Origin: Bacteroidales bacterium
Lineage (GTDB): Bacteria; Bacteroidota; Bacteroidia; Bacteroidales; UBA12077
Reading direction: 5' to 3'
Assembly: GCA_028282585.1 (NCBI GenBank)
Contig: JANQHR010000012.1
Location: 1-21,884 of the forward strand
DNA length: 21,884 bases
The position numbers and the translations under genes are program-made. The notes beneath the pieces were generated by a model. The model saw only the letters and a list, made by a program, of their open reading frames with translations, made no database searches and had not been told where the DNA came from. Every line of letters starts with the position of its first letter. The stretch's first letter is position 1. This document shows, one piece after another, positions 4,323-21,884 of this stretch.

Positions 4323-5228
4323 ATGAAGAAATATTTACAAAATATATTGGTGCCAGTTGATTTTAGAGATTCATCTTTAAAAGCAGTTAAGTATGCTTTC
4401 CAGGTTGCTAAAAAAATAGAAGCTAATTTAGTTTTAATAAATGTTATTGAAATTCCTGGAATGTTAGCCGAGTTATTTTCATCAGGAGATGAGTTAGTTA
4501 AGATTACTAATAAGGCTAAAGATGAGTTTCAGAAGGTGATTGATCAACTTAAAGAAGAAGATACCGAGATTCAGATCAAAAGTAGAATAGAAAGGGGTAA
4601 ACCTTACCAAAAGATTCTTGAAATAGCAGAAGAGATGAATGTTCGCATGATTATCCTTGGAGAAAATCACCAGGGCGAGTTAAAAACTAAAAATCTGGGA
4701 AGTACGGTTTATCAAGTGACTTTAAAATCTCCAGTTCCTGTTATTACTTATAAAGGGACGCATGAAAATGTGGTAAATAAAATTGTTGTTCCGCTCGATT
4801 TAACAAAGCAAACAAAAAAACAAATTGGTAGTGCACTGGCTTATGGTCTTAACTATAACTCGAAGATATATCTTGTTTCAGCGTTAATAGGTGGCATAAA
4901 ACTTAAAGAAAGCAGGATTTATAAAAAGCTTAAGGAAGCGAAAAAAACACTGGATCAGAATAATGTGGAATGTGAAATCAAGCTTTTTGAGCGCTCGGAG
5001 GTTGAACCTTTCCAAAGGGTGTTGGACTATACCAATGAAATAAATGCCGATATGATTTTGGTAATGACACACCAGGAAGGGTATACTTACGACAATTATA
5101 TAGGGGCTTTCGCGCATCACATTATTAACGAATCAGATGTATCCGTAATGAGTTTAACGTCTTCGGCCACCAGTGTTGATTTTAAAAGTCTCCTTGGAGC
5201 TATTGTCGATCCATTTGCCATATTTTAA
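4323..5228 (+). CDS. Universal stress protein, tandem USP domains
   Basis: NILVPVDF...GKPYQKILE...LGST...PVPV in domain 1 and KIVVPLDL...ADMILVMTH...IGAFAHHII in domain 2. Confidence 0.9.
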   Translation: MKKYLQNILVPVDFRDSSLKAVKYAFQVAKKIEANLVLINVIEIPGMLAELFSSGDELVKITNKAKDEFQKVIDQLKEEDTEIQIKSRIERGKPYQKILEIAEEMNVRMIILGENHQGELKTKNLGSTVYQVTLKSPVPVITYKGTHENVVNKIVVPLDLTKQTKKQIGSALAYGLNYNSKIYLVSALIGGIKLKESRIYKKLKEAKKTLDQNNVECEIKLFERSEVEPFQRVLDYTNEINADMILVMTHQEGYTYDNYIGAFAHHIINESDVSVMSLTSSATSVDFKSLLGAIVDPFAIF

Positions 5229-5240
5229 ACAATTTTTTTA

Positions 5241-7538: not shown

Positions 7539-7951
7539 ACTCTATAATTTTACAAATAGCAGCCAGGCATATTAAAGCATTGTTGGTACTTTTTGCAATA
7601 ATTGCTTTATTACGCGGGCATAACTACCCGGGAGGCGGATTTATTGGTGGCTTGTTGGCAGCATTATCGGTTATTTATTATGGGTTTGCTTTTAACGCAA
7701 AACAAGTTCGGGATAAGCTAAAAATTAGTCCAACGACTTATATAGCATTAGGATTATCTCTAGTTGTTTTAAGCTTTGTCCCTTCTATATTAAATCAGTT
7801 AGAACTGATGCAGGGAGTTTGGCTTAAAGTTCAAATACCGATTCTGGGCGAGTTAAAATTAGGGACGCCACTGTTATTCGACATAGGTGTATTTTTAACG
7901 GTGATAGGTGTGACATTTTTGTTTTTTTTCTCATTAACGAAAGTTGAATAA
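7535..7951 (+). CDS. mrpB: Multisubunit Na+/H+ antiporter subunit B
   Basis: LRGHNYPGGGFIGGL and LLFDIGVFLTV motifs; ATGA overlap with mrpA. Confidence 0.95.
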   Translation: MNSIILQIAARHIKALLVLFAIIALLRGHNYPGGGFIGGLLAALSVIYYGFAFNAKQVRDKLKISPTTYIALGLSLVVLSFVPSILNQLELMQGVWLKVQIPILGELKLGTPLLFDIGVFLTVIGVTFLFFFSLTKVE

Positions 7952-8295
7952 TGGAAATATTATTGGCCATATTAGTTGGAATATTATATACTGCCGGTGT
8001 TTATATGATACTTCGACGAAGTATTGTAAAGTTTATTATTGGTATTATTTTCCTGAGCAATGCTACAAATCTATTGGTTTTTCTTGCTTCAGGAATAGTT
8101 TCAGGAAAGCCGGTATTTGTGGGCGAAGAGCTGGCGGATGCATCCCAAATGGCGGACCCATTGCCTCAGGCTTTAGTTTTAACAGCTATCGTTATTGGTT
8201 TCGGAATAGTTGTGTTTACTTTGGCTTTAAAATTTAAGTTTTTTGAGCTAACCGGAACCGATGATTTGGATCAATTAAAGAAAACAGATACTTGA
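7951..8295 (+). CDS. mrpC: Multisubunit Na+/H+ antiporter subunit C
   Basis: DPLPQALVLTAIVIGFG motif; TAATG coupling to mrpB. Confidence 0.95.
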   Translation: MEILLAILVGILYTAGVYMILRRSIVKFIIGIIFLSNATNLLVFLASGIVSGKPVFVGEELADASQMADPLPQALVLTAIVIGFGIVVFTLALKFKFFELTGTDDLDQLKKTDT

Positions 8296-8296
8296 T

Positions 8297-9778
8297 ATGA
8301 TTATTACTGCCCTTCCCATATTAATTCCTTTTGTGTTGATAGTTATTATGATTATATCAAGATCTCTTGTATTTTCTAAAATAACCGGTATCATTGGGAG
8401 TCTTGGTTTATTGATTTTGTCCGTAATCATATTTTACAAGATAGATAAACAAGGATTCTTGGTACTTAATATGGCTGGATGGAAATCGCCTTATGGAATT
8501 ACCCTGGTGGTTGATTTTTTGAGTGGCCTGATGCTAACAATATCATCAATTATTGTTTTAGCCATTTCGATATATGCATACAAGTCGTTAAGTTTGGAAA
8601 AAGGAGTTACTAAATTTTATGTATTCTTTTTTTCATTAATCATGGGAGTTAATGGTGCATTTATCACAGGTGATGTTTTCAACCTTTACGTTTGGTTCGA
8701 GGTTATGCTTATTTCATCATTTGTTTTAATAACTTTTGGAAAATCAAAAGAACAGCTCGAAGGCGGAATCAAATATTTGGCGCTGAACTTATTAGGATCA
8801 TTATTTTTCTTAGCGGGTTTAGGCTTGTTATATGGCAAAACAGGTACCTTAAATATGGCTCACCTGGCAGATATACTTAGGAATGACAATCAGGTCATAT
8901 TAATGAATACTTCAGCTATTTTGTTTTTTATCGCGTTTGGAATTAAAGCAGCTGTTTTTCCATTATTTTTCTGGTTACCGGCATCATATCATACAGCCAA
9001 TATAACAATCTCATCCTTGTTTGCGGGCCTGTTAACCAAGGTAGGAGTTTATGCGTTTATTCGTTTTTTTACACTGTTTTTTGTGCACGATCAGGCCTTT
9101 TGGCATCAGTTTTTATTAATTATTGCAGGTTTTACAATGGTTATTGGTGGTATGTCGGCATCCATACATTACGATACAAGAAAAATCTTATCTTTCCATA
9201 TCATTAGCCAGATTGGTTATATGATTATGGGATTAGGTATTTATACTCCCTTGGCAATCGCTGGCGCGATATTTTTTACCATACACAACATGATAGCTAA
9301 AACGAATACATTTATAGTGGCCGGGCTAATTTATAAATTGAAAGGATCATTTTACCTGAAAGATGTAGGTGGAATCATCAAACAAAACCCTATGTTAGCT
9401 ATTTTATTTATAATACCAGCCTTTGCTTTAGCTGGAGTACCACCTATATCCGGGTTCTTTGCTAAATTTATTCTTATAAAAGCAGGTATAGATGATGGTC
9501 ATTTTGTAATTGTAATATTAGCTGTGCTTACAGCTTTGCTTACGTTATATTCTATGATAAAAATATGGAACGAAGCGTTCCTTAAAAAACAGCCCGATAA
9601 TGAATTTTCGGGTCAAAACACAGTTTTAAGTTTTGTAGACATGTTGCCATCTATAATTTTAGGGATTATGAGTATTTTAATGGGAATATTTGCATTTAAA
9701 GTATTTGATTTTACAATGCAGGCTGCTGATCAACTGATAGAAGGAACAGGTTATATTAATAATATTTTAAATAAGTAG
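8297..9778 (+). CDS. mrpD: Multisubunit Na+/H+ antiporter subunit D
   Basis: GDVFNLYVWFEVML, IKAAVFPLFFWLPASY, LLTKVGVY and LAGVPPISGFFAK motifs. Confidence 0.95.
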   Translation: MIITALPILIPFVLIVIMIISRSLVFSKITGIIGSLGLLILSVIIFYKIDKQGFLVLNMAGWKSPYGITLVVDFLSGLMLTISSIIVLAISIYAYKSLSLEKGVTKFYVFFFSLIMGVNGAFITGDVFNLYVWFEVMLISSFVLITFGKSKEQLEGGIKYLALNLLGSLFFLAGLGLLYGKTGTLNMAHLADILRNDNQVILMNTSAILFFIAFGIKAAVFPLFFWLPASYHTANITISSLFAGLLTKVGVYAFIRFFTLFFVHDQAFWHQFLLIIAGFTMVIGGMSASIHYDTRKILSFHIISQIGYMIMGLGIYTPLAIAGAIFFTIHNMIAKTNTFIVAGLIYKLKGSFYLKDVGGIIKQNPMLAILFIIPAFALAGVPPISGFFAKFILIKAGIDDGHFVIVILAVLTALLTLYSMIKIWNEAFLKKQPDNEFSGQNTVLSFVDMLPSIILGIMSILMGIFAFKVFDFTMQAADQLIEGTGYINNILNK

Positions 9779-9784
9779 ATTGAA

Positions 9785-10117
9785 ATGCAGATATTAAAGA
9801 AAACATATTATGCGTTGGAATTTGTGCTTTTCTATTTTGTAAAACTAGTGCAATCCAATATTTATATTGCATTTGATATATTAACACCTAATCTGAAAAT
9901 TTCCCCGGGTATTGTGAAAGTGCCATTGAACATTAGCTCCGATTTTGGATTGTTGGCTTTTTCCAATTTACTCTCCATGACTCCAGGTACTTTGACAGTT
10001 GATATCAGCGAGGATAAAAAAGTAATTATAGTACATGTTTTATATAGTAAAAATAGAGAAGTTGTGATGTTCGAAATAGATCAGGTACAGCAAAAAATAA
10101 AAAAAATCTTTAATTAA
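9785..10117 (+). CDS. mrpE: Multisubunit Na+/H+ antiporter subunit E (short form)
   Basis: NLLSMTPGTLTVD motif and HVL; position between mrpD and mrpF. Confidence 0.9.
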   Translation: MQILKKTYYALEFVLFYFVKLVQSNIYIAFDILTPNLKISPGIVKVPLNISSDFGLLAFSNLLSMTPGTLTVDISEDKKVIIVHVLYSKNREVVMFEIDQVQQKIKKIFN

Positions 10118-10119
10118 TT

Positions 10120-10392
10120 ATGGAAGCAGGTTTTCCAAATGTATGTTTAATTATATCCTTTCTATTCTTGTTAGGTGCTTTGATCATCAGCTTATTTAGG
10201 TTAATAACGGGACCTACAATTTATGATCGAATTGTTTCTCTTGATTTGATAGCTTCTATCGTAATGGGATTTATCTTATTGTATAGTATTGTAGTAAATA
10301 AAGCCATTTATTTTGACGTAGTAATTGTTATTTCATTAATAGCTTTTATTGGAACAGTTTCAATTTCAACTTATTTAAAAACAAAAAAATGA
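10120..10392 (+). CDS. mrpF: Multisubunit Na+/H+ antiporter subunit F
   Basis: RLITGPTIYDRIVSLD and FIGTVS motifs. Confidence 0.92.
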   Translation: MEAGFPNVCLIISFLFLLGALIISLFRLITGPTIYDRIVSLDLIASIVMGFILLYSIVVNKAIYFDVVIVISLIAFIGTVSISTYLKTKK

Positions 10393-10676
10393 CAGGTATA
10401 GTTGTATCAATATTAATACTATTAGGGAGTGCTTTTATATTTATAGCATCGCTGGGGTTATTTCGTTTTAGTGACCTTTACAGTAGGATGCATGCCAGTA
10501 CAAAAGCCACTTCGTTTGGAATCTTACTAATTGTAATTGGAATTGGAATATTTTTTAATACAGCAATTATATGGCTTAAAGCCTTTTTAGTGGTTATATT
10601 TATATATTTAACAGCACCACTTGCCGCACATTCCATTGCCAAATCTTTCGGAGATAAAAAAAAGAATAATGATTAG
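10389..10676 (+). CDS. mrpG: Multisubunit Na+/H+ antiporter subunit G
   Basis: GLFRFSDLYSRMHASTK and LTAPLAAH motifs; ATGA overlap with mrpF. Confidence 0.92.
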   Translation: MTGIVVSILILLGSAFIFIASLGLFRFSDLYSRMHASTKATSFGILLIVIGIGIFFNTAIIWLKAFLVVIFIYLTAPLAAHSIAKSFGDKKKNND

Positions 10677-11107
10677 TGCTGTTTTTCTTCTTTTTTAAGT
10701 TTGATTTTAAAATCTGCTTTTTTTATCAAAAAATAAGTTATACCTAAAGCTACTGTCATTATTGCGACGCTAATTAATTCTTCGGTTGAATATTTATTGA
10801 AATCCCAAACAATAGCTTTTCTTGCAATAGCTATAATTGCTATCAATATAATAAACTCTACATGTACAATGTCATCTTTAAGATAAGCTTTAATGGTTTC
10901 TAATAATTCCAGCCCTATAAGTAAAACTAGAAACAAACTAAATAAACTCATTAATCCGTTAGCATCGATTATAAATATGGGCTCTTCTATAATTTTCTGC
11001 TTGATTTCATAAACAATATCTATAAATGCCAACAGTATAATAGTTAGCATGACAATCAGAATTCCCCAAATTATTAGTTTCTCTACACTTCTAATAAACC
11101 CCAGCAT
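10673..11107 (-). CDS. Phosphate-starvation-inducible PsiE-family membrane protein
   Basis: Four TM segments with LLIGLELLETIKAYL...IAIIAIARKAIV signature. ATG at 11107 preferred (alternative TTG at 11140). Convergent with mrpG, 4-nt overlap. Confidence 0.8.
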   Translation of the reverse strand: MLGFIRSVEKLIIWGILIVMLTIILLAFIDIVYEIKQKIIEEPIFIIDANGLMSLFSLFLVLLIGLELLETIKAYLKDDIVHVEFIILIAIIAIARKAIVWDFNKYSTEELISVAIMTVALGITYFLIKKADFKIKLKKEEKQH

Positions 11108-11195
11108 TTCGTTTAAAGAATTAGTTTGTTTGTAAAACAAACGTTAAAAATAATTGTTTAGTTTTAATATATAACAATGATTAAAGAAAATTATT

Positions 11196-12332
11196 ATGAA
11201 ATTACTGGAAAATATATTATTGCCCACCGACTTAAGCGCTTCCTCAGAAAAAGCTGTTGAAGCTTCAATTCAGTTAGCGAAAGCATTTAAATCAAGGATT
11301 ACATTGTTACATGTTTATTCAGAAGAAAATTTTCCGGAAGAAACAGAAAAATTCCTAGAAATTGTAATCAAAGAGAATCTTGAGAAAATTAAAACTAAAA
11401 TTATTGAGGCTGATATTGAGGTAGCAGACGTTATTATGGAAAGGGGCGTAGCATTTGAAAAGATAATTCAAATAGCACAAGATAGAGATGTTAATGTTAT
11501 AATGGTCGGCTCGGGTAGTAAAAAAGAAAATGATAATTTCAAGTTAGGCACAACAGTTGAGAAATTAATGCGTAAAAATCAAATTCCGCTTTGGGTTGTA
11601 AAAAACGAAGCTGTTAAACCCATTCAAAGGATCCTATGTCCGGTTGATTTTTCCAACTCTTCTATAAGAGCATTTCAGAATGCTGTTACTTTAGCTGAAA
11701 GGTTTAAAGCCGAATTAAACCTTATACATGTTGTTGAGCCAGTTAAGAACACTTCTGCAAGGTTAAGTGTAAATGTTAAGGAAGAAAATCAAAGACGAAG
11801 AGATTTAAAGAAAAAAGAACTGAATAATTTCCTGTCTAATTACCAATTGCATCATATGAAATTGACTAAAGAGTTGTTAATGGGAGAACCTTTTTTGGAA
11901 ATACTTAGATATGCCAAACGAAATAAGTCCGATTTGCTGATTATGGGTACAACAGGAAAAACAGGCTTAAGCAAACTTTTAATGGGTAGCGTCACCGAAA
12001 AAGTTACTCGTGAATTGCCAGCTAGCTTTGTTACTACAAAAGCCAAAGACATAACCGATAATTATCTTGAAAGCAATTTGAAAGGGATTGAGTCCATATT
12101 AAATCCGGCGAAATCTTTACTTAAGAAAGGAAAATATGAGCCGGCGATTGAAAAGTTCTTAATAGGGATAAAGCAATATCCTGATAATATACCGATGTTA
12201 AAAGGCATTATAAAAGCATACGAAGCAGCAGGAAATGAAAAAAAGGCAAATTATTATAAAGATTATATGAAGGAAGTAGTTGAAAGAATTTGGGGTGATG
12301 AATATATTAACATGATCAATTTAGATGAATAA
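11196..12332 (+). CDS. Tandem USP-domain protein with C-terminal TPR-like extension
   Basis: NILLPTDLS and RILCPVDFS domain starts; ATP motif G-2x-G-9x-GS (GTTGKTGLSKLLMGS); tail AKSLLKKGKYEPAIEKF...YPDN...AYEAAGNEKKA is TPR-like. Confidence 0.9.
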   Translation: MKLLENILLPTDLSASSEKAVEASIQLAKAFKSRITLLHVYSEENFPEETEKFLEIVIKENLEKIKTKIIEADIEVADVIMERGVAFEKIIQIAQDRDVNVIMVGSGSKKENDNFKLGTTVEKLMRKNQIPLWVVKNEAVKPIQRILCPVDFSNSSIRAFQNAVTLAERFKAELNLIHVVEPVKNTSARLSVNVKEENQRRRDLKKKELNNFLSNYQLHHMKLTKELLMGEPFLEILRYAKRNKSDLLIMGTTGKTGLSKLLMGSVTEKVTRELPASFVTTKAKDITDNYLESNLKGIESILNPAKSLLKKGKYEPAIEKFLIGIKQYPDNIPMLKGIIKAYEAAGNEKKANYYKDYMKEVVERIWGDEYINMINLDE

Positions 12333-12374
12333 AAAGGTAGTTAATAATTTAGAAAAGTTGCTATGTATCATGAA

Positions 12375-13781
12375 TCAAAATAATTTCATTTGGTGCTCAT
12401 TGCCTGGTTTTAGTGATTGATTTTTAGCGCTTTTTCTCTGAATGACTTTCCCACCCTTCGTAGTTTTGGATTTACTTTGAACCATTTTTTCAATTATGCC
12501 CCCTCCAAAAATATTTGTCTGACCGATTATCTGATTTATTTCACCGGGATTAAATATAGAGACGGCACCATACTTACCATCGTAACCTCCTTTTGGATTC
12601 ACTTCGTGGTTACGTAATCTTCTTATAGCTTCAGCGAGCAGCTCGCCTGCCTTAGATTTTATCTCTTCATAAGGGATAGTATGCAATAAATCAAATTCGT
12701 TACCGAAAGTGGAAATGATTTTTGTAAAAGTTTGTTGCACAGTTTTTGTATTTGGGGCTGTGCCAGCAAATTCTCCAATTATTTCGGGCAAAGGGATTAT
12801 GTATTTAAAACCTGGCGATCCTTGTGGTTTTTGAGGTTTTTCCCTGTCTGCCAATTTTTCGACCCTATGTAATACACCTATGGTCAGAGGCTTTTTGCAT
12901 TTAGGACAAATATTGTTAAACTTAAGACTTTCTTGCGGTTCCAGGCAAATACTACAATTCCTGTGACCATCCATATGGTATTTCCCTTCTTCAGGGAAGA
13001 ATTCGTAAGTACCCAGAAAACCTTTTTTTGTTTTTAAAGCCTTAAATATATCGTAATAAGACATTTCTGTATCAAAGATATTCGCTTCTCTGCCAAGCTT
13101 TTGTGGTGAGTGGGCATCAGAATTGGAAATCAACGTATATTTATCCAAAGAGGATAGTTTCCAGTTCATGGCCGGATCAGAAGATAAACCGGTTTCAAGT
13201 GCAAAAATATGTTCCGATAAATCCCGGAAACACTCTTCAATACTATCGTATCCTGCTTTCGATCCAAGAGTAGAGAACCAAGGCGTCCAAATGTGGGCTG
13301 GAATAAGGTGAGCATCTTCTGATTTTTCGAGTACGATCTCCAGCAAGTCCCTTGATGATAATCCCAATATTGGCCTGCCATCCGAAGCCAAATTGCCGAT
13401 TTGGTTTAAATGGATATTTATTTTTTTTACTGTCTCAAAATCAGGAGCCACTAAAATGCTATGATTTTTTCTGACTTTTTCGCCATATTTGTAAACAGAT
13501 GAAATTTCCGCGCTAAGACAAAAAAATATATCTAGATCCTTAGTTTTAATATTTGGTAAGTTTTGTTCTTTTGGAGGGCTTTTTAATCGAAACAAACCGT
13601 TTCCTGCCGATTCGAGTTTTTCTTCTAACTCTTGTATCCACAAAGGGTGCGTAAAATCACCGGTACCAATAACATGGATACCTTTTATTTTTGCCCATTG
13701 GTATAGCGATTCAAGATTAAGGTTTTTACTTGTGGCCCTTGAATGATAAGAGTGGAGGTGAAAATCTGCAAAAAACTTCAT
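12375..13781 (-). CDS. PHP-domain endonuclease Q family protein (TIGR00375/YqxK-like)
   Basis: DFHLHSYHSRATS, GTGDFTHP, PAHIWTPWFS, ETGLSSD, SNSDAHSP, GKYH and zinc-ribbon CSIC...CPKC. Start at ATG 13781 (MKFFADFHLH) preferred. Confidence 0.85.
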   Translation of the reverse strand: MKFFADFHLHSYHSRATSKNLNLESLYQWAKIKGIHVIGTGDFTHPLWIQELEEKLESAGNGLFRLKSPPKEQNLPNIKTKDLDIFFCLSAEISSVYKYGEKVRKNHSILVAPDFETVKKINIHLNQIGNLASDGRPILGLSSRDLLEIVLEKSEDAHLIPAHIWTPWFSTLGSKAGYDSIEECFRDLSEHIFALETGLSSDPAMNWKLSSLDKYTLISNSDAHSPQKLGREANIFDTEMSYYDIFKALKTKKGFLGTYEFFPEEGKYHMDGHRNCSICLEPQESLKFNNICPKCKKPLTIGVLHRVEKLADREKPQKPQGSPGFKYIIPLPEIIGEFAGTAPNTKTVQQTFTKIISTFGNEFDLLHTIPYEEIKSKAGELLAEAIRRLRNHEVNPKGGYDGKYGAVSIFNPGEINQIIGQTNIFGGGIIEKMVQSKSKTTKGGKVIQRKSAKNQSLKPGNEHQMKLF

Positions 13782-14121
13782 GCCGGATAAAATTAATAAA
13801 GGTATAAGAATCAAAACGAAATTATTATCTTATTTTCTTTTAAACAAGATAGAAACCATTATGTTCTTTATAATTCAATGTCTTACTTTTAATAGCTTAA
13901 GAACAGAAAGAAGAATTAAAAAATGTTTAGTGAGGAATACAATGCATTTTTCAAGTTTCAAAGAATACGAAAAAAACCAAAGAAATCATAGACGCTTGTA
14001 ACAAGGAAGGATTTTATTTTTGCTTCTAAAACATTGTATATTTTAAACTGTACTAATAAATTAATCATTTTTTATAGCTCTGAAAGAACTAGTAATCCAT
14101 TTTTTACCTAAAATCAATAAT

Positions 14122-15231
14122 TCATTTGTCCCAATAGCGATTTAAAATTTCATTTTTATACGCCGTATAAAACTTCACTTTTTGTTGATTTTCCTTAGAT
14201 GTATATGAGCTGATCAATCCATTTATAATAGGAATATTATCAGGATATTGTCTAAGTCCTATTAAAAACTTATCTATTGCTTCGTTAAACTTCCCTTTTT
14301 TTAACAGTACCCTTGCAGGAATAAGGATTGACTCTACACCTTGCAAGTAGCTTTCCAGAAAATCATCGGTAATATCCTGTTCTTTGGTTGTTATTAAACT
14401 ACAAGGCAGTTCTCTGGTCACTTTTTCGGTGGTACTACCCATTAATAACCTGCTGATACCTGTTTTACCGGTAGTGCCCATAAGCAATAAATCAGCTTTT
14501 TGTTTTTCAATAGTTTTAATAATTTCTATATTCGGATTATTTCCCTTTAATAATTCTTTTGTGTAAGCTATTGATTTTAAATTAAAATTGGCCAGAAAAT
14601 TAGAAAAAGCAGCTTTTCTTTCTTTAAAAAGATTTTCATTTTGCGCATTTATACGTGAGCCTAGCCTGATTGAGCTTTCCCCGTAAGGCGTAAATATATG
14701 TATTATAGATAAATGTGCATTGAACGACCTGGCAAGAATAATCGCATTTTGCAATGCACGTTTGGAAGGGTTTGAAAAATCAACGGGGCATAAAATGTTT
14801 TTTATTGGTTTCACGGGTTCATTTTTTACAACCCAAAGCGGTATCTGGTTTTTTCGCATAAGCTTTTCGACGGTTGTTCCTAACTTAAAATTATCATCAT
14901 GCGATTTTAAACCGGAACCAACCATGATAACATTTACATTTTTCTTTTGGGCAACCTGAATGATTTTTTCGAAAGCTATTCCTTTTTCTATGATAACATC
15001 TGGGATATCAAGACCTTCTTTAAAAATTCTTACCTTTATTTCAGAGATCCTATTATAAGTATAAATTTCAATTTTTTTTTCGGTTTCCTTTGTGAGAGTT
15101 TCACTCGAAGATACATGTATTATTGAGATACTGGAATTAAATACTTTTGCTAATTGAATTGAAATATCAATTGCTCTGTCAGAAGATTCGCTAAAATCTA
15201 CAGCTACTAATATGTTTTTAAGTAATTTCAT
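14122..15231 (-). CDS. Tandem USP-domain protein with C-terminal TPR-like extension (paralogue of 11196..12332)
   Basis: Same architecture; shares the identical block DNFKLGTTVEKLMRKNQIPLWVVKNE and has GTTGKTGISRLLMGS. Confidence 0.9.
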   Translation of the reverse strand: MKLLKNILVAVDFSESSDRAIDISIQLAKVFNSSISIIHVSSSETLTKETEKKIEIYTYNRISEIKVRIFKEGLDIPDVIIEKGIAFEKIIQVAQKKNVNVIMVGSGLKSHDDNFKLGTTVEKLMRKNQIPLWVVKNEPVKPIKNILCPVDFSNPSKRALQNAIILARSFNAHLSIIHIFTPYGESSIRLGSRINAQNENLFKERKAAFSNFLANFNLKSIAYTKELLKGNNPNIEIIKTIEKQKADLLLMGTTGKTGISRLLMGSTTEKVTRELPCSLITTKEQDITDDFLESYLQGVESILIPARVLLKKGKFNEAIDKFLIGLRQYPDNIPIINGLISSYTSKENQQKVKFYTAYKNEILNRYWDK

Positions 15232-15514
15232 CGCTATCCGTTTTAGTTATAATATGAATTGAAAAAAATATGACACTAGCAATAGCTAAATGAGTAAAAA
15301 TCCATAATTGAATAAAATTAACTGAAAAAGTAAAGGCAAGAATTAGTCCACTAGTAGATATTAAAAGGTATAGGTTATACTTTTTTGTATTCCTACCTTC
15401 AATTAAGGGGGTTATTGCAGATATAAATGTAAAGATGACAATTCGGGATATAGCTAAACCAACTCTAAAAAATAGTTTGGAGCTTCTGGAATTTATATAA
15501 AATAATAACATCAT
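15218..15514 (-). pseudogene. Small hydrophobic ORF, possible degenerate fragment of an MrpA/MrpD/NuoL-family subunit
   Basis: NTKKYNLYLLISTSGLILAFTFSVNFIQLWIF aligns by eye to MrpA NTDRFFFFLFLFSGAMLGLVLSENLIQLFIF, but the conserved WE is absent; overlaps the USP start by 14 nt. Confidence 0.35.
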
Positions 15515-15561
15515 TTTAGTTAGTAATTTAAAAATAGAATGCTATTAAGCAGGAATTATTT

Positions 15562-15580
15562 AATTAAATTATATTTAATT
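15562..15580. promoter_or_regulatory. Palindromic operator-like site 1 (AATTAAAT-N3-ATTTAATT)
   Basis: AATTAAATTATATTTAATT, repeated identically at 15683-15701. Confidence 0.6.
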
Positions 15581-15644
15581 CGTCAGGTAAAAAATATAGA
15601 TGCTGTCTGTTTGTTGTTTAATTATGTCAAATTAATTTTTATAA

Positions 15645-15652
15645 TAACTTTG
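15645..15652 (+). promoter_or_regulatory. Promoter -7 box for the XRE regulator
   Basis: TAACTTTG(CA) matches TAnnTTTG, about 90 nt before the ATG at 15744 and bracketed by operator copies. Confidence 0.5.
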
Positions 15653-15682
15653 CAGTTGTTTCATAACAATATTTGCAAATAT

Positions 15683-15720
15683 AATTAAATTATATTTAAT
15701 TTGTGAAATTATATTTAATT
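15683..15720. promoter_or_regulatory. Tandem operator-like sites 2 and 3
   Basis: AATTAAATTATATTTAATT (15683-15701) immediately followed by TGTGAAATTATATTTAATT (15702-15720). Confidence 0.6.
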
Positions 15721-15743
15721 TACAAAATTATAAGATTAGCGTA

Positions 15744-16298
15744 ATGCATAGAATGGGTGATAGAATAAAGAAAATTAGAGAGAATTTAAACATTCAGACT
15801 AATGATTTAGCAAAAGAGGTGGGTGTTACACCAAGCTTAATTTCTCAAATCGAAAGGGCAAAAGCTTTCCCATCAATAATCACTCTTAAAAAGATTGCAG
15901 ATGCTCTTCAGACTACAGTTGGAGAATTAATAGGCGAAACAGAAACGTTGATAGAAAACCCATTACTGAAATATAGAGAAAGAAAATTCGTTAAGGAAAA
16001 TGGTAATGGAGCCAGGCTGTTTTTATTATCACATCATGATCCACATAAACATATGGATCCTTTTATTATTGAGTTTAATCAGGATGCGGATTCTAAGGAT
16101 ATAATGACTACCATTAATCCGTGCCAAGAATATTGTTTTGTAATTAAAGGAAGTTTTGAAGTAGTATTGAGTAGTAGAAAATACACGTTAAATGAGGGTG
16201 ACAGCTTTTATTTTAATTCAAATCAGTATCATTTATTTAAAAATATAGGTAATGAAAATGCTCAATTGTTATGGGTTGTAAATCAAAATGCGACTTAA
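15744..16298 (+). CDS. XRE-family HTH transcriptional regulator with C-terminal cupin domain (PuuR-like architecture)
   Basis: IKKIRE...LAKEVGVTPSLISQIERAKAFPSIITLKKIADAL HTH; cupin EYCFVIKG...LNEGDSFYFNSNQYHLFKN. Confidence 0.92.
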   Translation: MHRMGDRIKKIRENLNIQTNDLAKEVGVTPSLISQIERAKAFPSIITLKKIADALQTTVGELIGETETLIENPLLKYRERKFVKENGNGARLFLLSHHDPHKHMDPFIIEFNQDADSKDIMTTINPCQEYCFVIKGSFEVVLSSRKYTLNEGDSFYFNSNQYHLFKNIGNENAQLLWVVNQNAT

Positions 16299-16314
16299 AA
16301 AAATTTATGTACAT

Positions 16315-16333
16315 AATTAAATAATACTTAATC
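16315..16333. promoter_or_regulatory. Operator-like site 4
   Basis: AATTAAATAATACTTAATC, same dyad and spacing as sites 1-2. Confidence 0.5.
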
Positions 16334-16425
16334 AAATAAAAAATACTTAAATGAAAAAAATCAATAAGGAAAATTAAAATCTAAAGTAAGTCATTGATAA
16401 AGAATGCAAATTTTTTTATACAAAT

Positions 16426-16444
16426 AATTAAATAATATTTAAAA
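16426..16444. promoter_or_regulatory. Operator-like site 5
   Basis: AATTAAATAATATTTAAAA, ending 21 nt upstream of the purE ATG. Confidence 0.5.
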
Positions 16445-16465
16445 AACTAAAATAAATTTAATAAA

Positions 16466-16948
16466 ATGAAAAAGGTAGTTATTATAATGGGATCTAAAAG
16501 TGATCTTGATTGGGCAAAAAAAATAGTTAATACATTAGAAAAGTTTGAAATAGAAACTGCAATACATGCTGCTTCGGCTCATAAGGTTCCTTTAAAATGT
16601 TATGATTTAATTAAGAAGTACGAAAAAGAAAATGTTGTTTTCATAACAATTGCCGGTATGAGTAATGCACTTAGTGGATTTTCCGATGCACAAACCTATT
16701 GTCCGGTAATTGCCTGTCCTCCATACAGTGACAAATTTGGTGGTGGTGATTTGTTTTCAAGCGTTCGCATGCCATCCGGAGTTGCTCCGTTAACGATTTT
16801 AAGTCCTGAAAATGCTGCTTTGGCTGCTGCTAAAATAATAGGTTTAGCAAATACCGATATACAAAAAAAGGTCTCTGAATATCAAGCCAAAAAAAGAGAA
16901 GAATTGGAAAAAGCAGATGATGAGATACAAAAAAACAAGGAGAGTTAA
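16466..16948 (+). CDS. purE: AIR carboxylase, class II PurE-type
   Basis: IIMGSKSD, SAHK, ITIAGMSNALSGF, PVIACPP, SSVRMPSG and NAALAAAKI motifs. Confidence 0.9.
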   Translation: MKKVVIIMGSKSDLDWAKKIVNTLEKFEIETAIHAASAHKVPLKCYDLIKKYEKENVVFITIAGMSNALSGFSDAQTYCPVIACPPYSDKFGGGDLFSSVRMPSGVAPLTILSPENAALAAAKIIGLANTDIQKKVSEYQAKKREELEKADDEIQKNKES

Positions 16949-16951
16949 TAT

Positions 16952-17977
16952 ATGGGAAGTGTAAAAGATCTAAAAGTGATACAAGCACCTGAAAAAGATT
17001 CTTCAGGTGTTGGTGTTTTTAATTTTTCGGATCGGTATTCTGTTTTTGATTGGGGTGAAATGCCAGACACGATAGCACATAAAGGCGTTGCTACTGCTAT
17101 TTTAGGAGCCTTCTTCTTTGAAAAGCTCGAGAAACTTGGAATTGAAACCCATTATTTAGGACTTCTGGAAAACAATGTACCGAATAAGTTAAAAGACATA
17201 ACCACTCCCTCAAATCTCATGATGATTGATCTGGTTAACGTACATCAACCGGTAGTTAAAAATGATATTTACGATTATGATGTCTATAAACAGTTAACCG
17301 GTAATTTTCTTATTCCGTTGGAAATTATTTATCGTAATACTTTGCCTGCAGGAAGTAGTGTTTTTAAAAGGCTTGCTAAAGGGCAACTAAAATACTCTGA
17401 CTTAGGATTAAACTCAGAACCACAACCTGACACAAAGTTAGCAGTTCCATTTATTGATTTCTCTACAAAATTGGAAATAACCGATAGATATATATCCCAA
17501 GATGAAGCTCAGGAAATTTCAAACCTGGATAATTTTGAGATAGATTCTTTGGCGGACATAACCTTGAAAATCAATGAAATTATTTCTTCGGAATATTCAA
17601 AAATCAACGCTGTTAACCTTGACGGTAAAGTAGAAACAGCGTTCAATACAAAAAGAAAGGTTATGCTTGTAGATGTATTAGGTACCTTGGATGAATGCAG
17701 GTTTGAGTTAAACGGTTTACATCTCAGTAAAGAAGTTGCGCGCATCTATTACAGAAATTCTGATTGGTATCATGAAACAGAAAGAGCAAAAGAAAAAGAC
17801 AGGCAGAATTGGAAGCAAGAATGCAAACTGCAACCGGAACCTTTACCAGCAAGATTTAGAGATCTGCTTTCTTACATGTATTGTGGGGTTACCAACGAGA
17901 TTACTGAAAAGCAATGGTTTGATGTACCTATGACACTAAATGAAATTACAGAAGAAATAAAAACCTATATCAAATAA
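16952..17977 (+). CDS. purC: SAICAR synthetase, long archaeal-like subtype (341 aa)
   Basis: MGSVKD, FSDRYSVFDWGEMPD, IPLEIIYRN, FSTKLE, DGKVE, DVLGTLDECRF and SKE motifs; 3 nt after purE. Confidence 0.9.
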   Translation: MGSVKDLKVIQAPEKDSSGVGVFNFSDRYSVFDWGEMPDTIAHKGVATAILGAFFFEKLEKLGIETHYLGLLENNVPNKLKDITTPSNLMMIDLVNVHQPVVKNDIYDYDVYKQLTGNFLIPLEIIYRNTLPAGSSVFKRLAKGQLKYSDLGLNSEPQPDTKLAVPFIDFSTKLEITDRYISQDEAQEISNLDNFEIDSLADITLKINEIISSEYSKINAVNLDGKVETAFNTKRKVMLVDVLGTLDECRFELNGLHLSKEVARIYYRNSDWYHETERAKEKDRQNWKQECKLQPEPLPARFRDLLSYMYCGVTNEITEKQWFDVPMTLNEITEEIKTYIK

Positions 17978-18006
17978 AATAATTCAATATCATTAAGAAA
18001 AATAAA

Positions 18007-19572
18007 ATGTTAAACACAAATACTAGTAGCATTCAAACATCGGATTTAGAAAACATGATAGAACAGTATCAGTTTTCTGAAGAAACGGTGTCGATTCTTG
18101 AAAATGAAAATCTTATTCCCTCAAGGCTACTTAGCAGATTACACAATGTTTATCCACAACATTCTGGTATTCGAATATCAGGGGAATTTCTATTTAAAGG
18201 GAAAAATCATTATGCAGGTTTAAAGGGGTTTAGAGAAATAATAGAAATATTGCAAAAAAATGGAATAGAAATTGGACACATAGAAGCCCGTGAATTTTTT
18301 ATAAAAGTTTATCGCTTTTTAGCAACCAAACATGTTCTAAATGCCATTAACTGGAAAGATTTTAATAACGACTCAATTTTTCAATTAGTTTTCCCGCAGC
18401 CAGGAATGATAAAACCTGAGGTGATTAAAACCTATAGTGATGCAAAGGATGAAAATGAAAGACAAAAAGTTATTGATGATTATATAAAAAAAACGAATCC
18501 TCATGATGGTAAACAAAAATTAAATAGGCCATGCTTTGAAAATCAGGGAGGAATAGTTGAGGTAGTAGAAGGAGGACAACACAAATACCCTCAATGTCAT
18601 CTTATATTCGATAAAACTACTCAAAGTTGTTTTGCATTCTGTACATATTGTTTTAGGCATGCTCAAGTTCGTGGCGACGAAGATATGTTTTTACAAAAAG
18701 ATGCCAATCAGGTTCACGAATATTTAAAGCAACATAAGGAAGTTACAGATGTGCTTATTACAGGTGGCGACGCAGGTTTTATGCCATATGAACGACTTAA
18801 GCAATATGTTATACCTATTATTGAGGATCCTGAATTATCACATATAAAAACATTGCGACTTGGATCCCGTGCTTTGACTTTCCACCCTGAATTAATTCTA
18901 ACTTCTGATTATACTAAAATCCTGGACTTATTTACAAAAATGATTGATAATGGAATTCAGGTTGCATGGATGACACATTTTTCTACTCCACGAGAAGTGC
19001 TTAATATTAGCACAATAGCTGCTATTCGTCGTTTAAGAAAAAGAGGAGTGGTAGTAAAAAGCCAGAGCCCGGTTATGAACCATATTAGCATTTTTACAAA
19101 GCCTGATGGAACAATTGATGTTGACAAGTCTGCTCAAAACTGGATAGATCTGGGAAATATATTTGCCATGTTAACAATTGGGTTTCACTCAATGTATTGT
19201 GCCCGGCCAACAGGAGAACATCACTATTTCACAGTTCCGTTGGCTGATATGGACAAAGTATTTAGTAAAGTCTACAGGTCACTGCCATCAATCAGTCGAC
19301 CATCAAGATATATTACAATGACTTCTTCTGCAGGAAAAACTTCTTTGCTTGGTATTACAGAAGTTAATGGGAAAAAAGCGTTTGCTCTTAAATTCAATGA
19401 AAGTAGAAATATGGAATGGATGGATAAAGTTTATCTGGCTGTTTATGATGAGAAAGAAAATACCATAGAAAAACTTAAACCATTTGATAATGAAAAGTAT
19501 TTTTATGAAGATGAGTTAGAAAATCTTGAAAAAACATTGGAAGAAACACTGACAAGTCAACTACAAAAATAA
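18007..19572 (+). CDS. KamA-family radical SAM/PLP amino-acid 2,3-aminomutase-like protein, substrate uncertain
   Basis: QHKYP, CFAFCTYCFR (Cx3Cx2C, about 18628-18651), DVLITGGD, LRLGSR, MTHF..PRE, QSPV, putative PLP lysine in SSAGK. Confidence 0.85.
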   Translation: MLNTNTSSIQTSDLENMIEQYQFSEETVSILENENLIPSRLLSRLHNVYPQHSGIRISGEFLFKGKNHYAGLKGFREIIEILQKNGIEIGHIEAREFFIKVYRFLATKHVLNAINWKDFNNDSIFQLVFPQPGMIKPEVIKTYSDAKDENERQKVIDDYIKKTNPHDGKQKLNRPCFENQGGIVEVVEGGQHKYPQCHLIFDKTTQSCFAFCTYCFRHAQVRGDEDMFLQKDANQVHEYLKQHKEVTDVLITGGDAGFMPYERLKQYVIPIIEDPELSHIKTLRLGSRALTFHPELILTSDYTKILDLFTKMIDNGIQVAWMTHFSTPREVLNISTIAAIRRLRKRGVVVKSQSPVMNHISIFTKPDGTIDVDKSAQNWIDLGNIFAMLTIGFHSMYCARPTGEHHYFTVPLADMDKVFSKVYRSLPSISRPSRYITMTSSAGKTSLLGITEVNGKKAFALKFNESRNMEWMDKVYLAVYDEKENTIEKLKPFDNEKYFYEDELENLEKTLEETLTSQLQK

Positions 19573-19609
19573 AGTAGATTTGTCGATTCATATAATGTAA
19601 TATTTAATA

Positions 19610-20323
19610 ATGATTAATAAAATAGTAGAATCAACTTCTGAAGCTGTCAAAGATATTTTCGATGGTGCTGTTATTATGATTAGTGGATTTGGCGAAGCAG
19701 GTAGTCCAATCGAACTCATTCATGCACTCATCGATCAAGGAGCTAAAGATTTGACAGTAATAAGTAATAATACAGGAAGTGGACATGTTGGATTAGCTGC
19801 CCTTATAGAATGCAAAAAGGTTAGAAAAATGGTTTGTTCTTTTCCAAGGACAGCTAACTCCACTGTTTTTCCTGAACTATATTCAAAAGGAGAAATTGAA
19901 CTTGAACTAGTACCACAAGGAACTTTAGCTGAAAGAATAAGGTCCGGAGGTGCAGGGATTCCCGCTTTTTATACATCCACATCGGTAAATACTCCGTTGG
20001 CTGAAGGAAAAGAAATTCGTGTTTTCGACAACACTCAGTACGTAATGGAATATGGTATTAAGGCCGATTTTTCATTAATAAAATGTGAAGCAGCTGATCG
20101 CCATGGTAATCTAATATATAATAAAACGGCCAGAAATTTTGGTCCGATTATGTGTACTGCAGGCGAAAAAACAATTGTCCAGGCTAAGCGAATTGTTGAA
20201 TTAGGAGAAATTGATCCTGAATCTATTGTTACTCCGGGCATATTTGTAAATAGTGTAGTAGAAGTTAGTAATCCGGCCGATGAATCAAAACTTGTAAAAG
20301 AAAACAGGAGGTATCCATGGTAG
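19610..20323 (+). CDS. pcaI: 3-oxoacid CoA-transferase subunit A (3-oxoadipate CoA-transferase type)
   Basis: DGAVIMISGFG, LTVISNN, CSFPR, PQGTLAERIR, ARNFGPIM and TPGIFV. CSFPR is characteristic of recalled PcaI sequences. Confidence 0.85.
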   Translation: MINKIVESTSEAVKDIFDGAVIMISGFGEAGSPIELIHALIDQGAKDLTVISNNTGSGHVGLAALIECKKVRKMVCSFPRTANSTVFPELYSKGEIELELVPQGTLAERIRSGGAGIPAFYTSTSVNTPLAEGKEIRVFDNTQYVMEYGIKADFSLIKCEAADRHGNLIYNKTARNFGPIMCTAGEKTIVQAKRIVELGEIDPESIVTPGIFVNSVVEVSNPADESKLVKENRRYPW

Positions 20324-20973
20324 AAAAAGAAATAAAAAAAGGATGGAGCCGAAATGAGATGGCACAAAAAGTGGCTCTGGATATTCCTGATGGTGCTTAT
20401 GTAAATCTTGGAATAGGAATTCCCGAATTAGTTGCTGATTATGTTCCTGAAGGTCGTGAAGTAATATACCACACTGAAAATGGTTTACTTGGCATGGGAC
20501 CGGCGCCTGAAAAAGGACAGGAAGATCCCGAACTTATTAATGCAGGTAAGAAAAATATTACAACTATTAAAGGTGCCTGCTTTTTTCATCATGCCGATAG
20601 TTTTACAATGATAAGAGGAAAACATATAGATATCTGCGTTTTAGGAGCATTTGAAGTTTCCGAAAAAGGTGATCTGGCAAACTGGTCAACCGGGGAACCT
20701 GATGCGGTTCCTGCTGTAGGCGGAGCTATGGACCTGGTTGCCGGAGTAAAAAACATCCTGGTTATTACCCAACACACAACAAAAAGCGGCAAGCCCAAAA
20801 TTGTTGAAAATTGCACTTACCCTTTAACTGGTAAAGGAGTGGTTAACCGTATTTATACCGATCTTGCTATAATCGATATCACGGAAGAAGAGCTTGTTAT
20901 TAAAGAATTGGCCCCAGGTATTAGCTTTGATTATGTGCAGGAAAGAACAGGAGCAAAACTTAGAATGTCATAA
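20317..20973 (+). CDS. pcaJ: 3-oxoacid CoA-transferase subunit B (3-oxoadipate CoA-transferase type)
   Basis: YVNLGIGIP, HTENG (catalytic Glu), LINAGK, FFHHADSF, GDLANW, PAVGGAMDL and CTYPLTG; 7-nt overlap with subunit A. Confidence 0.85.
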   Translation: MVEKEIKKGWSRNEMAQKVALDIPDGAYVNLGIGIPELVADYVPEGREVIYHTENGLLGMGPAPEKGQEDPELINAGKKNITTIKGACFFHHADSFTMIRGKHIDICVLGAFEVSEKGDLANWSTGEPDAVPAVGGAMDLVAGVKNILVITQHTTKSGKPKIVENCTYPLTGKGVVNRIYTDLAIIDITEEELVIKELAPGISFDYVQERTGAKLRMS

Positions 20974-20996
20974 ACTTTTACAGAAACTACTTAAAT

Positions 20997-21884
20997 ATGG
21001 GGCATAGTATTAATACACAAATAAAAAAACACACCAACGAAGAAATATATCAAAAAGCGCGTAAGGTTATACCTGGTGGAGTAAGTCGAAATACGGTATT
21101 TCACGAGCCATACCCGCATTATGTTGCTCATGCAAATGGATGTTATGTTACTGATATTGATGGTGTCCAACGAATTGATTTTGCTAACAATATGGCGGCA
21201 TTAATTCATGGCCATGCTTTTCCTCCAATAGTAGAAGGTGTTATCGAACAAATTAAAAATGGTACAGCTTATACCATGGCAACAGAGGTAGAAGTGGATT
21301 TTGCGCAATTATTATGCGACAGAGTTCGTGGATTTGAAAAAATTAGGTTTGTAAACTCGGGTACTGAGGCTGTTATGGCTATGATAAAGGCTTCTCGAGC
21401 TTTTACAGGAAAATCTAAAATAGCAAAAGCCGAAGGTGCCTACCATGGAACTTATGACTTTGCCGAAGTAAGTCAATTTGCAGACCCAACAAATTGGGGT
21501 GATATTAACAAACCAAATAGTGTTCCGCTGGCATATGGCACGCCGCAAGGAGTTTTAGATGATGTAATAATTTTTCCGTACAATGATATCGAAAGAACAA
21601 TCGCTATTTTGGACCAACATGCAGATCAGATCGCTTGTGTACTTATAGATCCGATACCTCACAGGGTTGGATTACTAAAAGGAACAACAGAATTTGTTGA
21701 AGCATTATACAAATGGACGCGTGAAAACAAAGCTTTACTCGTATTCGATGAAGTAGTAACCTTTCGGACAAATTATAGTGGCGCACAGCAATATTATCCG
21801 GTAAAGCCAGACCTCACAGCTCTGGGTAAAATAATAGGAGGAGGATTTCCTGTTGGTGCATTTGCCGGACGTTCAGATATTATG
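20997..21884 (+). CDS. Class III PLP aminotransferase (HemL-like fold, probable beta-amino acid transaminase), 3'-truncated by the window
   Basis: Hand translation from ATG 20997, open for 296 codons to the window end: MGHSINTQ...IPGGVSRNTVFHEPYP...IHGHA...FVNSGTEA...EGAYHG...LVFDEVVTFR...PDLTALGKIIGGGFPVGAFAGR. Not in the supplied ORF track. Confidence 0.9.
   Translation, partial: MGHSINTQIKKHTNEEIYQKARKVIPGGVSRNTVFHEPYPHYVAHANGCYVTDIDGVQRIDFANNMAALIHGHAFPPIVEGVIEQIKNGTAYTMATEVEVDFAQLLCDRVRGFEKIRFVNSGTEAVMAMIKASRAFTGKSKIAKAEGAYHGTYDFAEVSQFADPTNWGDINKPNSVPLAYGTPQGVLDDVIIFPYNDIERTIAILDQHADQIACVLIDPIPHRVGLLKGTTEFVEALYKWTRENKALLVFDEVVTFRTNYSGAQQYYPVKPDLTALGKIIGGGFPVGAFAGRSDIM

Follow-up and report, generated by a model that had tools for sequence, protein, structure and literature searches.

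What is a gene for a KamA-like radical S-adenosylmethionine (SAM) protein doing in front of genes for a 3-oxoacid coenzyme A (CoA)-transferase and a class III aminotransferase? This series closes contig JANQHR010000012.1 of a Bacteroidales genome (GCA_028282585.1; 4.9 Mb, 173 contigs), which we analyzed over its whole length of 21,884 nt (contig G000:C130, hereafter the window; G+C content ~30-35%). A first-pass annotation, made from the letters alone, had read the three functions as an undescribed catabolic pathway that turns an α-amino acid into a β-amino acid, a 3-oxoacid and a 3-oxoacyl-CoA thioester for thiolysis, with 2-aminoadipate as the preferred substrate. Our analysis leads to a similar answer. 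The KamA-like gene, pcaI, pcaJ, the aminotransferase gene and a pcaF thiolase gene located beyond the window end probably constitute one catabolic operon for L-2-aminoadipate.

The annotated series of open reading frames (ORFs) was confirmed at 18007-21884. On the plus strand, a KamA-like radical SAM/pyridoxal 5'-phosphate (PLP) enzyme of 521 aa (18007..19572) is followed by subunits A (PcaI/ScoA family, 237 aa, 19610..20323) and B (PcaJ/ScoB family, 218 aa, 20317..20973) of a 3-oxoacid CoA-transferase and by a class III aminotransferase (20997..21884; Aminotran_3, 139.5 bits). Intergenic gaps measure 38 and 24 nt, and pcaI and pcaJ overlap by 7 nt. The assignment of the last gene to class III held, with the correction that the window ends inside it, leaving the N-terminal 296 of 449 aa and an open frame. 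The final 99 nt of the window are an exact copy of the end of contig C30, their sole other match in the genome. Joining C30 at this 99-nt overlap supplies the remainder of the gene (L003:17772-18332, minus strand) and completes the aminotransferase to 449 aa. The joined protein aligns without gaps to its orthologue in locus L004 of the closest relative (408/450 identical residues), with identity even across the junction, and the gene order of L004 is that of the joined window and C30; the join is therefore sound. On C30, a thiolase gene starts 11 nt past the aminotransferase gene (L003:16552-17760, minus strand). Its 402-aa product, PcaF, scores above the curated equivalog cut-offs for 3-oxoadipyl-CoA thiolase (PcaF/PaaJ), with 709.4 versus 605 bits for NF006551 and 691.3 versus 597 bits for TIGR02430. 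The thiolase that the first-pass annotation had suggested looking for just downstream is thus present.

From these five genes, a short pathway can be proposed. Acting like lysine 2,3-aminomutase (LAM), the radical SAM/PLP enzyme would turn 2-aminoadipate into 3-aminoadipate through a shift of the amino group from C2 to C3. The HemL-like aminotransferase would pass the β-amino group to a 2-oxoacid, leaving 3-oxoadipate; PcaIJ would move CoA from succinyl-CoA to yield 3-oxoadipyl-CoA and succinate; and PcaF would use CoA to cleave the thioester into acetyl-CoA and succinyl-CoA, regenerating the CoA donor. The net reaction would be 2-aminoadipate + 2-oxoacid + CoA → succinate + acetyl-CoA + amino acid, with no need for O2, decarboxylation or glutaryl-CoA. 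Alternatively, CoA might be transferred onto 3-aminoadipate first and the thioester transaminated afterwards. We infer all of these steps from comparative genomics and residue mapping. That the cassette encodes a catabolic sequence of aminomutase, β-transaminase, CoA-transferase and thiolase appears highly likely whatever the substrate. For the substrate itself, 2-aminoadipate is the best candidate, and on balance a probable one, because neighboring genes and the PcaF-type thiolase point there. Lysine breakdown passes through this compound in the saccharopine, pipecolate and lysine-6-aminotransferase routes alike. No published description of the route proposed here was found in the full-text literature, a source that does not cover subscription journals or patents; the papers retrieved for 3-aminoadipate and its synonyms deal with metabolomics or meteorite chemistry.

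Could the first protein be a 2,3-aminomutase at all? Its scores are low throughout: 75.1 bits for the KamA family model TIGR00238 (cut-off 199.2), 67.3 bits for lysine 2,3-aminomutase (TIGR03820, cut-off 525.4) and 61.5 bits for glutamate 2,3-aminomutase (TIGR04368, cut-off 650). Overall, the models for lysine, arginine and glutamate 2,3-aminomutases and for EpmB gave 50-67 bits, with EpmB at 50.6, and no Pfam family was matched at E ≤ 0.001. The annotation as a KamA-like radical SAM protein therefore survives in the sense of a distant KamA relative; falling under every KamA-family cut-off, the protein is, by these profiles, far from canonical KamA. The radical SAM signature is nevertheless complete, comprising a CxxxCxxC motif (C208/C212/C215), R217 and the GGD SAM motif (G253-G254-D255), all invariant in 28/28 family members. 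Sequence or profile searches against the PDB aligned the LAM structure 2a5h over residues 184-358 only, while a family-to-family comparison with lysine 2,3-aminomutases in hhalign extended over residues 49-449, reaching the PLP lysine, at 98.8% probability. An AlphaFold2 model (predicted local distance difference test score, 85; predicted template modeling score, 0.88) gave 2a5h as the top Foldseek match (E = 3.1e-14, template modeling score of 0.65 on the target), with the next entry at 5.2e-05. The predicted fold of the KamA-like protein is LAM-like.

For residue-level comparison, we aligned 28 members of the new family and a LAM group of 11 proteins from genomes of the phylum, six of them above the TIGR03820 cut-off and five at 473-496 bits. 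The numbering of 2a5h was transferred via one LAM-group protein, and mapping by hhalign agreed with an independent repetition using MAFFT L-INS-i. The Fe-S cysteines of LAM (Cys125/Cys129/Cys132) correspond to C208/C212/C215, Arg134 to R217 and the PLP-binding Lys337 to K444, each of them conserved in 28/28 family members and in 11/11 LAM-group proteins. Two further positions separate the groups: Asp293 and Asp330, both found in 11/11 LAM-group proteins, align with R400 (Arg in 28/28) and T437 (Ser in 18 and Thr in 10 of the 28), respectively. In addition, LAM Cys268 is not conserved in the family, and the C-terminal third lacks cysteines; Cys268 and the C-terminal cysteines form the zinc site of LAM. 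Lepore and colleagues reportedly established in 2005 that Asp293 and Asp330 hold the ε-ammonium group of lysine, that Arg134 binds the α-carboxylate and that Lys337 binds PLP. The accessible sections of a review on PLP (PMC6411801) give no roles for LAM residues. If the roles given for Asp293, Asp330, Arg134 and Lys337 hold, the new family would retain everything that a 2,3-aminomutase needs for catalysis, while the distal part of its pocket, cation-binding in LAM, would be expected to accommodate an anion. 2-Aminoadipate has the chain length of lysine with a carboxylate in place of the CH2-NH3+ end, and for this reason the exchange of Asp for Arg is the charge swap expected for this substrate. 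Together with the Ser/Thr replacement, likewise found in 28/28 members, it favors the substrate preferred by the first-pass annotation.

The same annotation had named glutamate, histidine, aromatic amino acids and leucine as alternatives. Neither the invariant distal Arg nor a PcaF-type thiolase suits histidine, aromatic amino acids or leucine, which are less good candidates. L-Glutamate would follow the same logic, yielding β-glutamate, 3-oxoglutarate, 3-oxoglutaryl-CoA and finally malonyl-CoA and acetyl-CoA, a sequence that could serve, for example, the consumption of the osmolyte β-glutamate. The invariant Arg at the position of LAM Asp293 would bind its γ-carboxylate too; Ruzicka and Frey reportedly described in 2007 a basic residue at that position in glutamate 2,3-aminomutase. 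Sequences for checking this residue were sought, and no gene above the TIGR04368 cut-off was found in the five genomes searched. The weak similarity of the KamA-like protein to the glutamate 2,3-aminomutase model also speaks for glutamate; the 61.5 bits are, however, far under the cut-off of 650, and the thiolase passes the model for 3-oxoadipyl-CoA thiolase. Moreover, 3-oxoglutarate decarboxylates easily, which we count against this substrate. With the neighboring genes described below, glutamate appears improbable.

In database searches, the best 120 clusters were 66-90% identical to the KamA-like protein over nearly its full length and comprised proteins of 499-573 aa. They carry the names 'hypothetical protein' at NCBI and 'lysine 2,3-aminomutase' at JGI, with the automatic names 'hypothetical protein' and 'lysine 2,3-aminomutase family' in the ESM Atlas. 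At E ≤ 0.001, 1,666 clusters were recovered among 8,000 candidates scored, a number that includes more distant KamA relatives. Within the phylum of the window, the gene is present in three of 401 mostly high-quality genomes, its own genome counted. We propose that this family probably represents a radical SAM 2-aminoadipate 2,3-aminomutase, a new activity that would link lysine catabolism to the end steps of the β-ketoadipate pathway. Relative to lysine 2,3-aminomutase, the family contains a specific insertion at residues 134-186 (window ~18406-18564) with the motif T163-N-P-H-D-G-x-Q170, of which T163, N164, P165, H166, D167 and Q170 each occur in 28/28 members; this TNPHDGxQ segment may belong to the substrate pocket. 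The genome carries two more KamA-related genes (G000:C86:27804-28721 and G000:C23:21810-22883, in open frames of 385 and 732 aa), which score 169 and 161 bits, respectively, under the TIGR00238 cut-off.

The downstream enzymes are more readily classified. As annotated, the CoA-transferase is of the PcaIJ type, with both subunits above their cut-offs: 341.7 versus 128.5 bits for TIGR02429 in PcaI/ScoA, which also matches CoA_trans (209.9 bits), and 309.9 versus 243.55 bits for TIGR02428 in PcaJ/ScoB. For the aminotransferase fragment in the window, HemL-type models were the best hits. The full-length orthologue (L004:12990-14339, 91% identical) falls below both HemL cut-offs (333.3 versus 527.3 for TIGR00713; 327.9 versus 398 for NF000818), and on this measure the cassette enzyme is not HemL. 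The closest solved structure to the orthologue is 6k8h (383 bits), followed by ForI (314 bits), HemL proteins (~195-226 bits) and the β-phenylalanine and β-transaminases 4ao9, 2yku and 6iz9 (177-185 bits). As far as the accessible part of the source goes, 6k8h is an omega-transaminase from Sphaerobacter thermophilus with β- and γ-amino acids as substrates (PMC10589169). These matches fit a putative β-amino-acid, here 3-aminoadipate, transaminase, without proving one. A search of the full-text literature, again outside subscription journals and patents, found no 3-aminoadipate transaminase with a catabolic role.

The inclusion of biosynthetic enzymes such as ForI among the closest solved relatives of the aminotransferase raises the question of direction. 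Each of the four reaction types can in principle run backwards, and the cassette might build 3-oxoadipate and 3-aminoadipate, with or without 2-aminoadipate, from succinyl-CoA and acetyl-CoA, providing a β-amino acid building block or feeding lysine synthesis. For such a purpose, a CoA-transferase that frees the 3-oxoacid would be an odd choice. Neither the window nor the conserved neighbors include a nonribosomal peptide synthetase (NRPS), polyketide synthase or lysine-biosynthesis gene; the neighbors are instead catabolic enzymes, LysR-type regulators and uptake systems. We regard a biosynthetic role as very unlikely. Scans of the 26 window ORFs with Pfam and NCBIfam models also agreed with the first-pass annotation in giving no match to lysine 5,6-aminomutase, kdd/kce/kal, ablB, efp/epmA or NRPS families. 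KamDE, Kdd, Kce and Kal were absent from the window ORFs and nine ORFs of the joined contig, to which the search for them was confined rather than extended to the rest of the genome. Homologues of pcaB, pcaC, pcaD, pcaG or pcaH were found neither in the window nor on the joined contig.

If the genes serve one pathway, do they travel together? Scanning one genome per species gave 140 relatives of the KamA-like protein, of which the best 80 loci were retained and their ORFs searched with the window proteins; 57 loci extended at least 4.3 kb downstream. The exact order of KamA-like gene, pcaI, pcaJ, aminotransferase gene and pcaF on the same strand was found in 51 of these 57, which settles in its favor the co-conservation on which the first-pass annotation had made its proposal depend. 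In locus L010, all four partners are present with the aminotransferase gene and pcaF swapped, and among the 23 shorter loci, all 19 that retain any downstream ORF start the same series. According to record titles, the loci belong to Bacteroidales, Ignavibacteriae, Neomarinimicrobiota, Fibrobacteraceae, Krumholzibacteriia, Eisenbacteria, Planctomycetota, Desulfuromonadales, Gammaproteobacteria and others, with Shewanella corallii DSM 21332 and Motiliproteus sp. SC1-56 as cultured carriers among the Gammaproteobacteria. Such conservation of order across phyla looks like an operon for one pathway. It also bears on the idea that the genes are adjacent without sharing a pathway, the KamA-like protein having an unrelated role such as an EpmB-like protein modification. 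Its failure at every KamA-family cut-off leaves the chemistry uncertain, and the models that it matches weakly include EpmB (50.6 bits). Against this stand the fixed order in 51/57 loci from many phyla, the conserved PLP lysine and carboxylate-binding Arg, and the lack of an efp or epmA homologue in the window scans, which together make an unrelated role barely credible.

Further evidence on the substrate came from the surroundings of the cassette. Other ORFs within 7 kb were clustered over the 80 loci, and representatives of 25 clusters were annotated. The commonest neighbor is a regulator with helix-turn-helix (HTH) and cupin domains (25 loci), followed by two Bacteroidales housekeeping genes and LysR-type regulators. 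Seven of the 80 loci contain an aldehyde dehydrogenase gene, in several arrangements, and all three of the proteins tested are L-piperideine-6-carboxylate dehydrogenases (AmaB) by their scores (794.9, 826.6 and 796.5 bits, cut-off 730). The product of this enzyme is L-2-aminoadipate, and its adjacency lends further weight to that substrate. The dehydrogenase gene immediately precedes the cassette in the same orientation in L017, L018 and L025. In L024 it is divergently oriented and accompanied by a gene for an AmaA-like L-pipecolate oxidase, and it lies downstream in L023 and, together with the oxidase gene, in L026. Because of these varied positions, repeated recruitment would be more plausible than one inherited accident. 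The AmaA-like oxidases at the two loci score 459 and 473 bits, under the cut-off of 600. Saccharopine-dehydrogenase-like proteins (three loci), a second class III aminotransferase nearest to ornithine omega-aminotransferase (ornithine/lysine type; five loci), short proteins of the HGLS/2-oxoadipate dioxygenase family (five loci) and hot-dog thioesterases (four loci) were also found near the cassette, and amino-acid ATP-binding cassette and tripartite ATP-independent periplasmic transporters recur. For glutamate, these results are unfavorable: the neighbors in seven loci make 2-aminoadipate instead, and the 25 annotated clusters include no gene for handling malonyl-CoA.

The same neighbors allow for other entry points. 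The substrate might be another amino acid whose distal group is anionic or polar, for instance 2-aminopimelate, or lysine might enter first, with β-lysine oxidized at C6 by the omega-aminotransferase and the neighboring aldehyde dehydrogenase to 3-aminoadipate. In some loci, a second omega-aminotransferase and an aldehyde dehydrogenase indeed flank the cassette, and this version would need them too. In most loci, however, the five-gene core has no aldehyde dehydrogenase nearby, the dehydrogenase passes the specific model for the piperideine-6-carboxylate enzyme, and the loss of both Asp residues in 28/28 family members argues against binding of the lysine ε-amine. Another substrate of this kind, or prior entry of lysine, is accordingly doubtful, and L-2-aminoadipate remains our preferred candidate.

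A number of observations weigh against the assignment to 2-aminoadipate. The PcaI and PcaJ models also cover the acetoacetate-specific ScoAB, and they do not fix the substrate of the transferase. The residue argument draws on the alignment, on the LAM residue roles given above and on a presumed orientation of R400 into the pocket, and a basic residue at the Asp293 position would suit glutamate as well. Four loci (L028, L034, L035 and L039) have no PcaF within 6.5 kb, and L011, from a Roseivirgaceae metagenome-assembled genome (MAG), consists of the regulator, the KamA-like gene and the aminotransferase gene only, lacking PcaIJ and PcaF; downstream of these five loci, no pathway-related genes were found, nor any hint of another fate of the β-keto acid. 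AmaB is adjacent in only seven of the 80 loci, all of the Desulfuromonadales type or gammaproteobacterial by title and none from Bacteroidota. It was not found in the genome under study, where the best aldehyde dehydrogenase reaches 221 bits against the cut-off of 730. In the closest relative, AmaB is encoded on a separate contig (L109, G658:C80), and contig C172 of our genome begins exactly where AmaB ends; our copy may have been lost in an assembly gap at the start of C172, and since this contig starts at the syntenic position, neither presence nor absence can be claimed. Genome-wide co-occurrence of the cassette with AmaB was considered as evidence and discarded as uninformative, given that four of five other cassette-bearing Bacteroidota genomes encode AmaB compared with 148 of 301 sampled genomes of the phylum.

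How might the operon be controlled in this genome, and what surrounds it? From 15744 to the window end, seven plus-strand genes run head to tail, with a first spacer of 168 nt and later gaps of 3 to 38 nt. The first encodes the HTH (Cro/C1)-cupin transcriptional regulator (15744..16298; HTH_3, 49.6 bits; Cupin_2, 50.4 bits), which scores 50.7 bits with the PuuR model (cut-off 211). In 24 of the 80 loci, an orthologue immediately precedes the KamA-like gene in the same orientation, and the regulator-bearing loci belong to Bacteroidota and Neomarinimicrobiota according to MAG titles. The regulator probably controls the operon in our genome. A sigma-70 promoter scan of 15200-21884 returned 26 sites versus 28.8 expected from shuffled sequences, with Bacteroidota promoters outside the coverage of the scan, and a terminator scan of the same region returned two sites versus 3.6 expected. 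Among sequencing runs, the sole one listed as containing this DNA was a DNA run, perhaps the source of the assembly, and no RNA run was listed.

Between the regulator and the cassette lie genes for a PurE-like protein of the aminoimidazole ribonucleotide (AIR) carboxylase/N5-carboxy-AIR mutase family (16466..16948, plus strand; AIRC, 144 bits) and a PurC-like, long-form phosphoribosylaminoimidazole-succinocarboxamide synthetase (16952..17977, plus strand; SAICAR_synt, 79.6 bits). The former reaches 146.5 bits with TIGR01162 (cut-off 149.6), and a better PurE copy exists on contig C1 (219.4 versus 143.9 bits); the latter reaches 279.7 bits with NF010566 (cut-off 546), and the canonical PurC copy is on C135 (243.8 bits). 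Homologues 55-60% identical to the PurC-like protein are annotated as PurC in Methanobacterium, Nitrospirae and Bacillota records, and a search of 300 other genomes of the class for this long form gave no match at E ≤ 1e-40. Of the 80 cassette loci, only L004, a 90% relative, has the pair. Conversely, 80 metagenome loci with this PurC type have purE just upstream in 28 cases, sua5 just downstream in nine and the cassette in none. Membership of the two genes in the pathway was rejected on these grounds, as they are second copies, rare at cassette loci and of a type at whose 80 loci the cassette is missing. The pair is probably a horizontally acquired passenger lodged between regulator and cassette. 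In the present arrangement, the five-gene cassette sits between a long 'archaeal-type' purC and sua5.

On C30, pcaF is followed by genes for Sua5/TsaC, a universal stress protein (USP), an AI-2E-family transporter and an AbgT-family transporter; the same contig encodes an 816-aa KAP-family P-loop NTPase (L003:6148-8598, minus strand) with a weak match to the anti-phage protein QatA (45 bits, cut-off 600). The other window genes encode an Mrp-type cation/proton antiporter, tandem-USP proteins, a PsiE-like protein, a TIGR00375-family protein and small proteins of no assigned family. The antiporter operon comprises seven genes (5241-10676) and is ringed by USP genes and the PsiE-like gene (region 4323-15231). 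Tandem-USP genes are found at 4323-5228, 11196-12332 and 14122-15231 (minus strand), with a fourth past sua5 on C30 (L003:14663-15550). The TIGR00375-family protein (479 aa, 12375-13814, minus strand) scores 167.6 bits versus a cut-off of 326.6 and has a faint metallohydrolase match.

If correct, the proposed pathway would be a third, short route from 2-aminoadipate for which catalytic quantities of the CoA donor suffice, and a widespread, O2-independent and decarboxylation-free one in anaerobic and facultative bacteria of many phyla, with relevance to lysine catabolism in anoxic habitats. It would give a function to a large family labeled 'hypothetical protein' or, wrongly, 'lysine 2,3-aminomutase', and would correct the annotation of an aminotransferase likely called HemL by automatic pipelines. 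The cultured carriers make the idea directly testable, and the cassette enzymes are relevant to engineering; patents on bio-adipate have proposed an interconversion of 2-aminoadipate, 3-aminoadipate and 3-oxoadipate.

Each part of the proposed pathway has a known counterpart. With LAM (KamA) from Clostridium subterminale (2a5h), the KamA-like protein shares aligned CxxxCxxC and GGD motifs, the Arg after the third Cys and the PLP Lys, and the same 1,2-amino shift would be expected of it. It differs from LAM in being only ~19% identical and ~100 residues longer, with the inserted TNPHDGxQ segment, and its family shows the exchanges of Asp293 for Arg and Asp330 for Ser/Thr and lacks Cys268 and the C-terminal cysteines. 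The aminotransferase belongs to the same class III subgroup as the HemL-like β-amino-acid transaminases 6k8h, 4ao9, 2yku and 6iz9; these solved enzymes have been studied for biocatalysis, whereas the predicted role here is catabolic. With the end of the β-ketoadipate pathway of aromatic catabolism (PcaIJ and PcaF), the cassette shares the NCBIfam models passed and the succinyl-CoA cycle, the difference being that 3-oxoadipate would arise from an amino acid via a β-amino acid and not from ring cleavage of protocatechuate or catechol.

As a whole, the pathway resembles lysine fermentation in Clostridia and Fusobacterium (KamA, KamDE, Kdd, Kce and Kal), which is also anaerobic, has a radical SAM 2,3-aminomutase as its first enzyme, involves a β-keto intermediate and finishes with CoA-transfer and thiolase reactions; a variant in Cloacimonas uses a 3-aminobutyryl-CoA aminotransferase. 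Unlike the cassette, this fermentation depends on the B12-dependent 5,6-aminomutase, Kdd, Kce and Kal, none of them seen in the window, and yields butyrate and acetate, whereas the cassette is predicted to convert 2-aminoadipate into succinyl-CoA and acetyl-CoA. To our knowledge, the disposal of lysine carbon in strict or facultative anaerobes beyond the clostridial fermenters is poorly mapped. The known fate of 2-aminoadipate is transamination to 2-oxoadipate and on to glutaryl-CoA; in Pseudomonas putida, 2-oxoadipate is reportedly also converted via HglS to 2-hydroxyglutarate (bioRxiv 10.1101/450254). As far as we know, these routes require either 2-oxoadipate dehydrogenase and glutaryl-CoA dehydrogenase or an O2-dependent dioxygenase. 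The proposed pathway has the same entry metabolite, and the feeder enzymes AmaB and AmaA-like oxidase adjoin the cassette in some genomes. In contrast to the known fates, the amino group would be shifted before its removal and the chain cut between C3 and C4, with neither decarboxylation nor O2.

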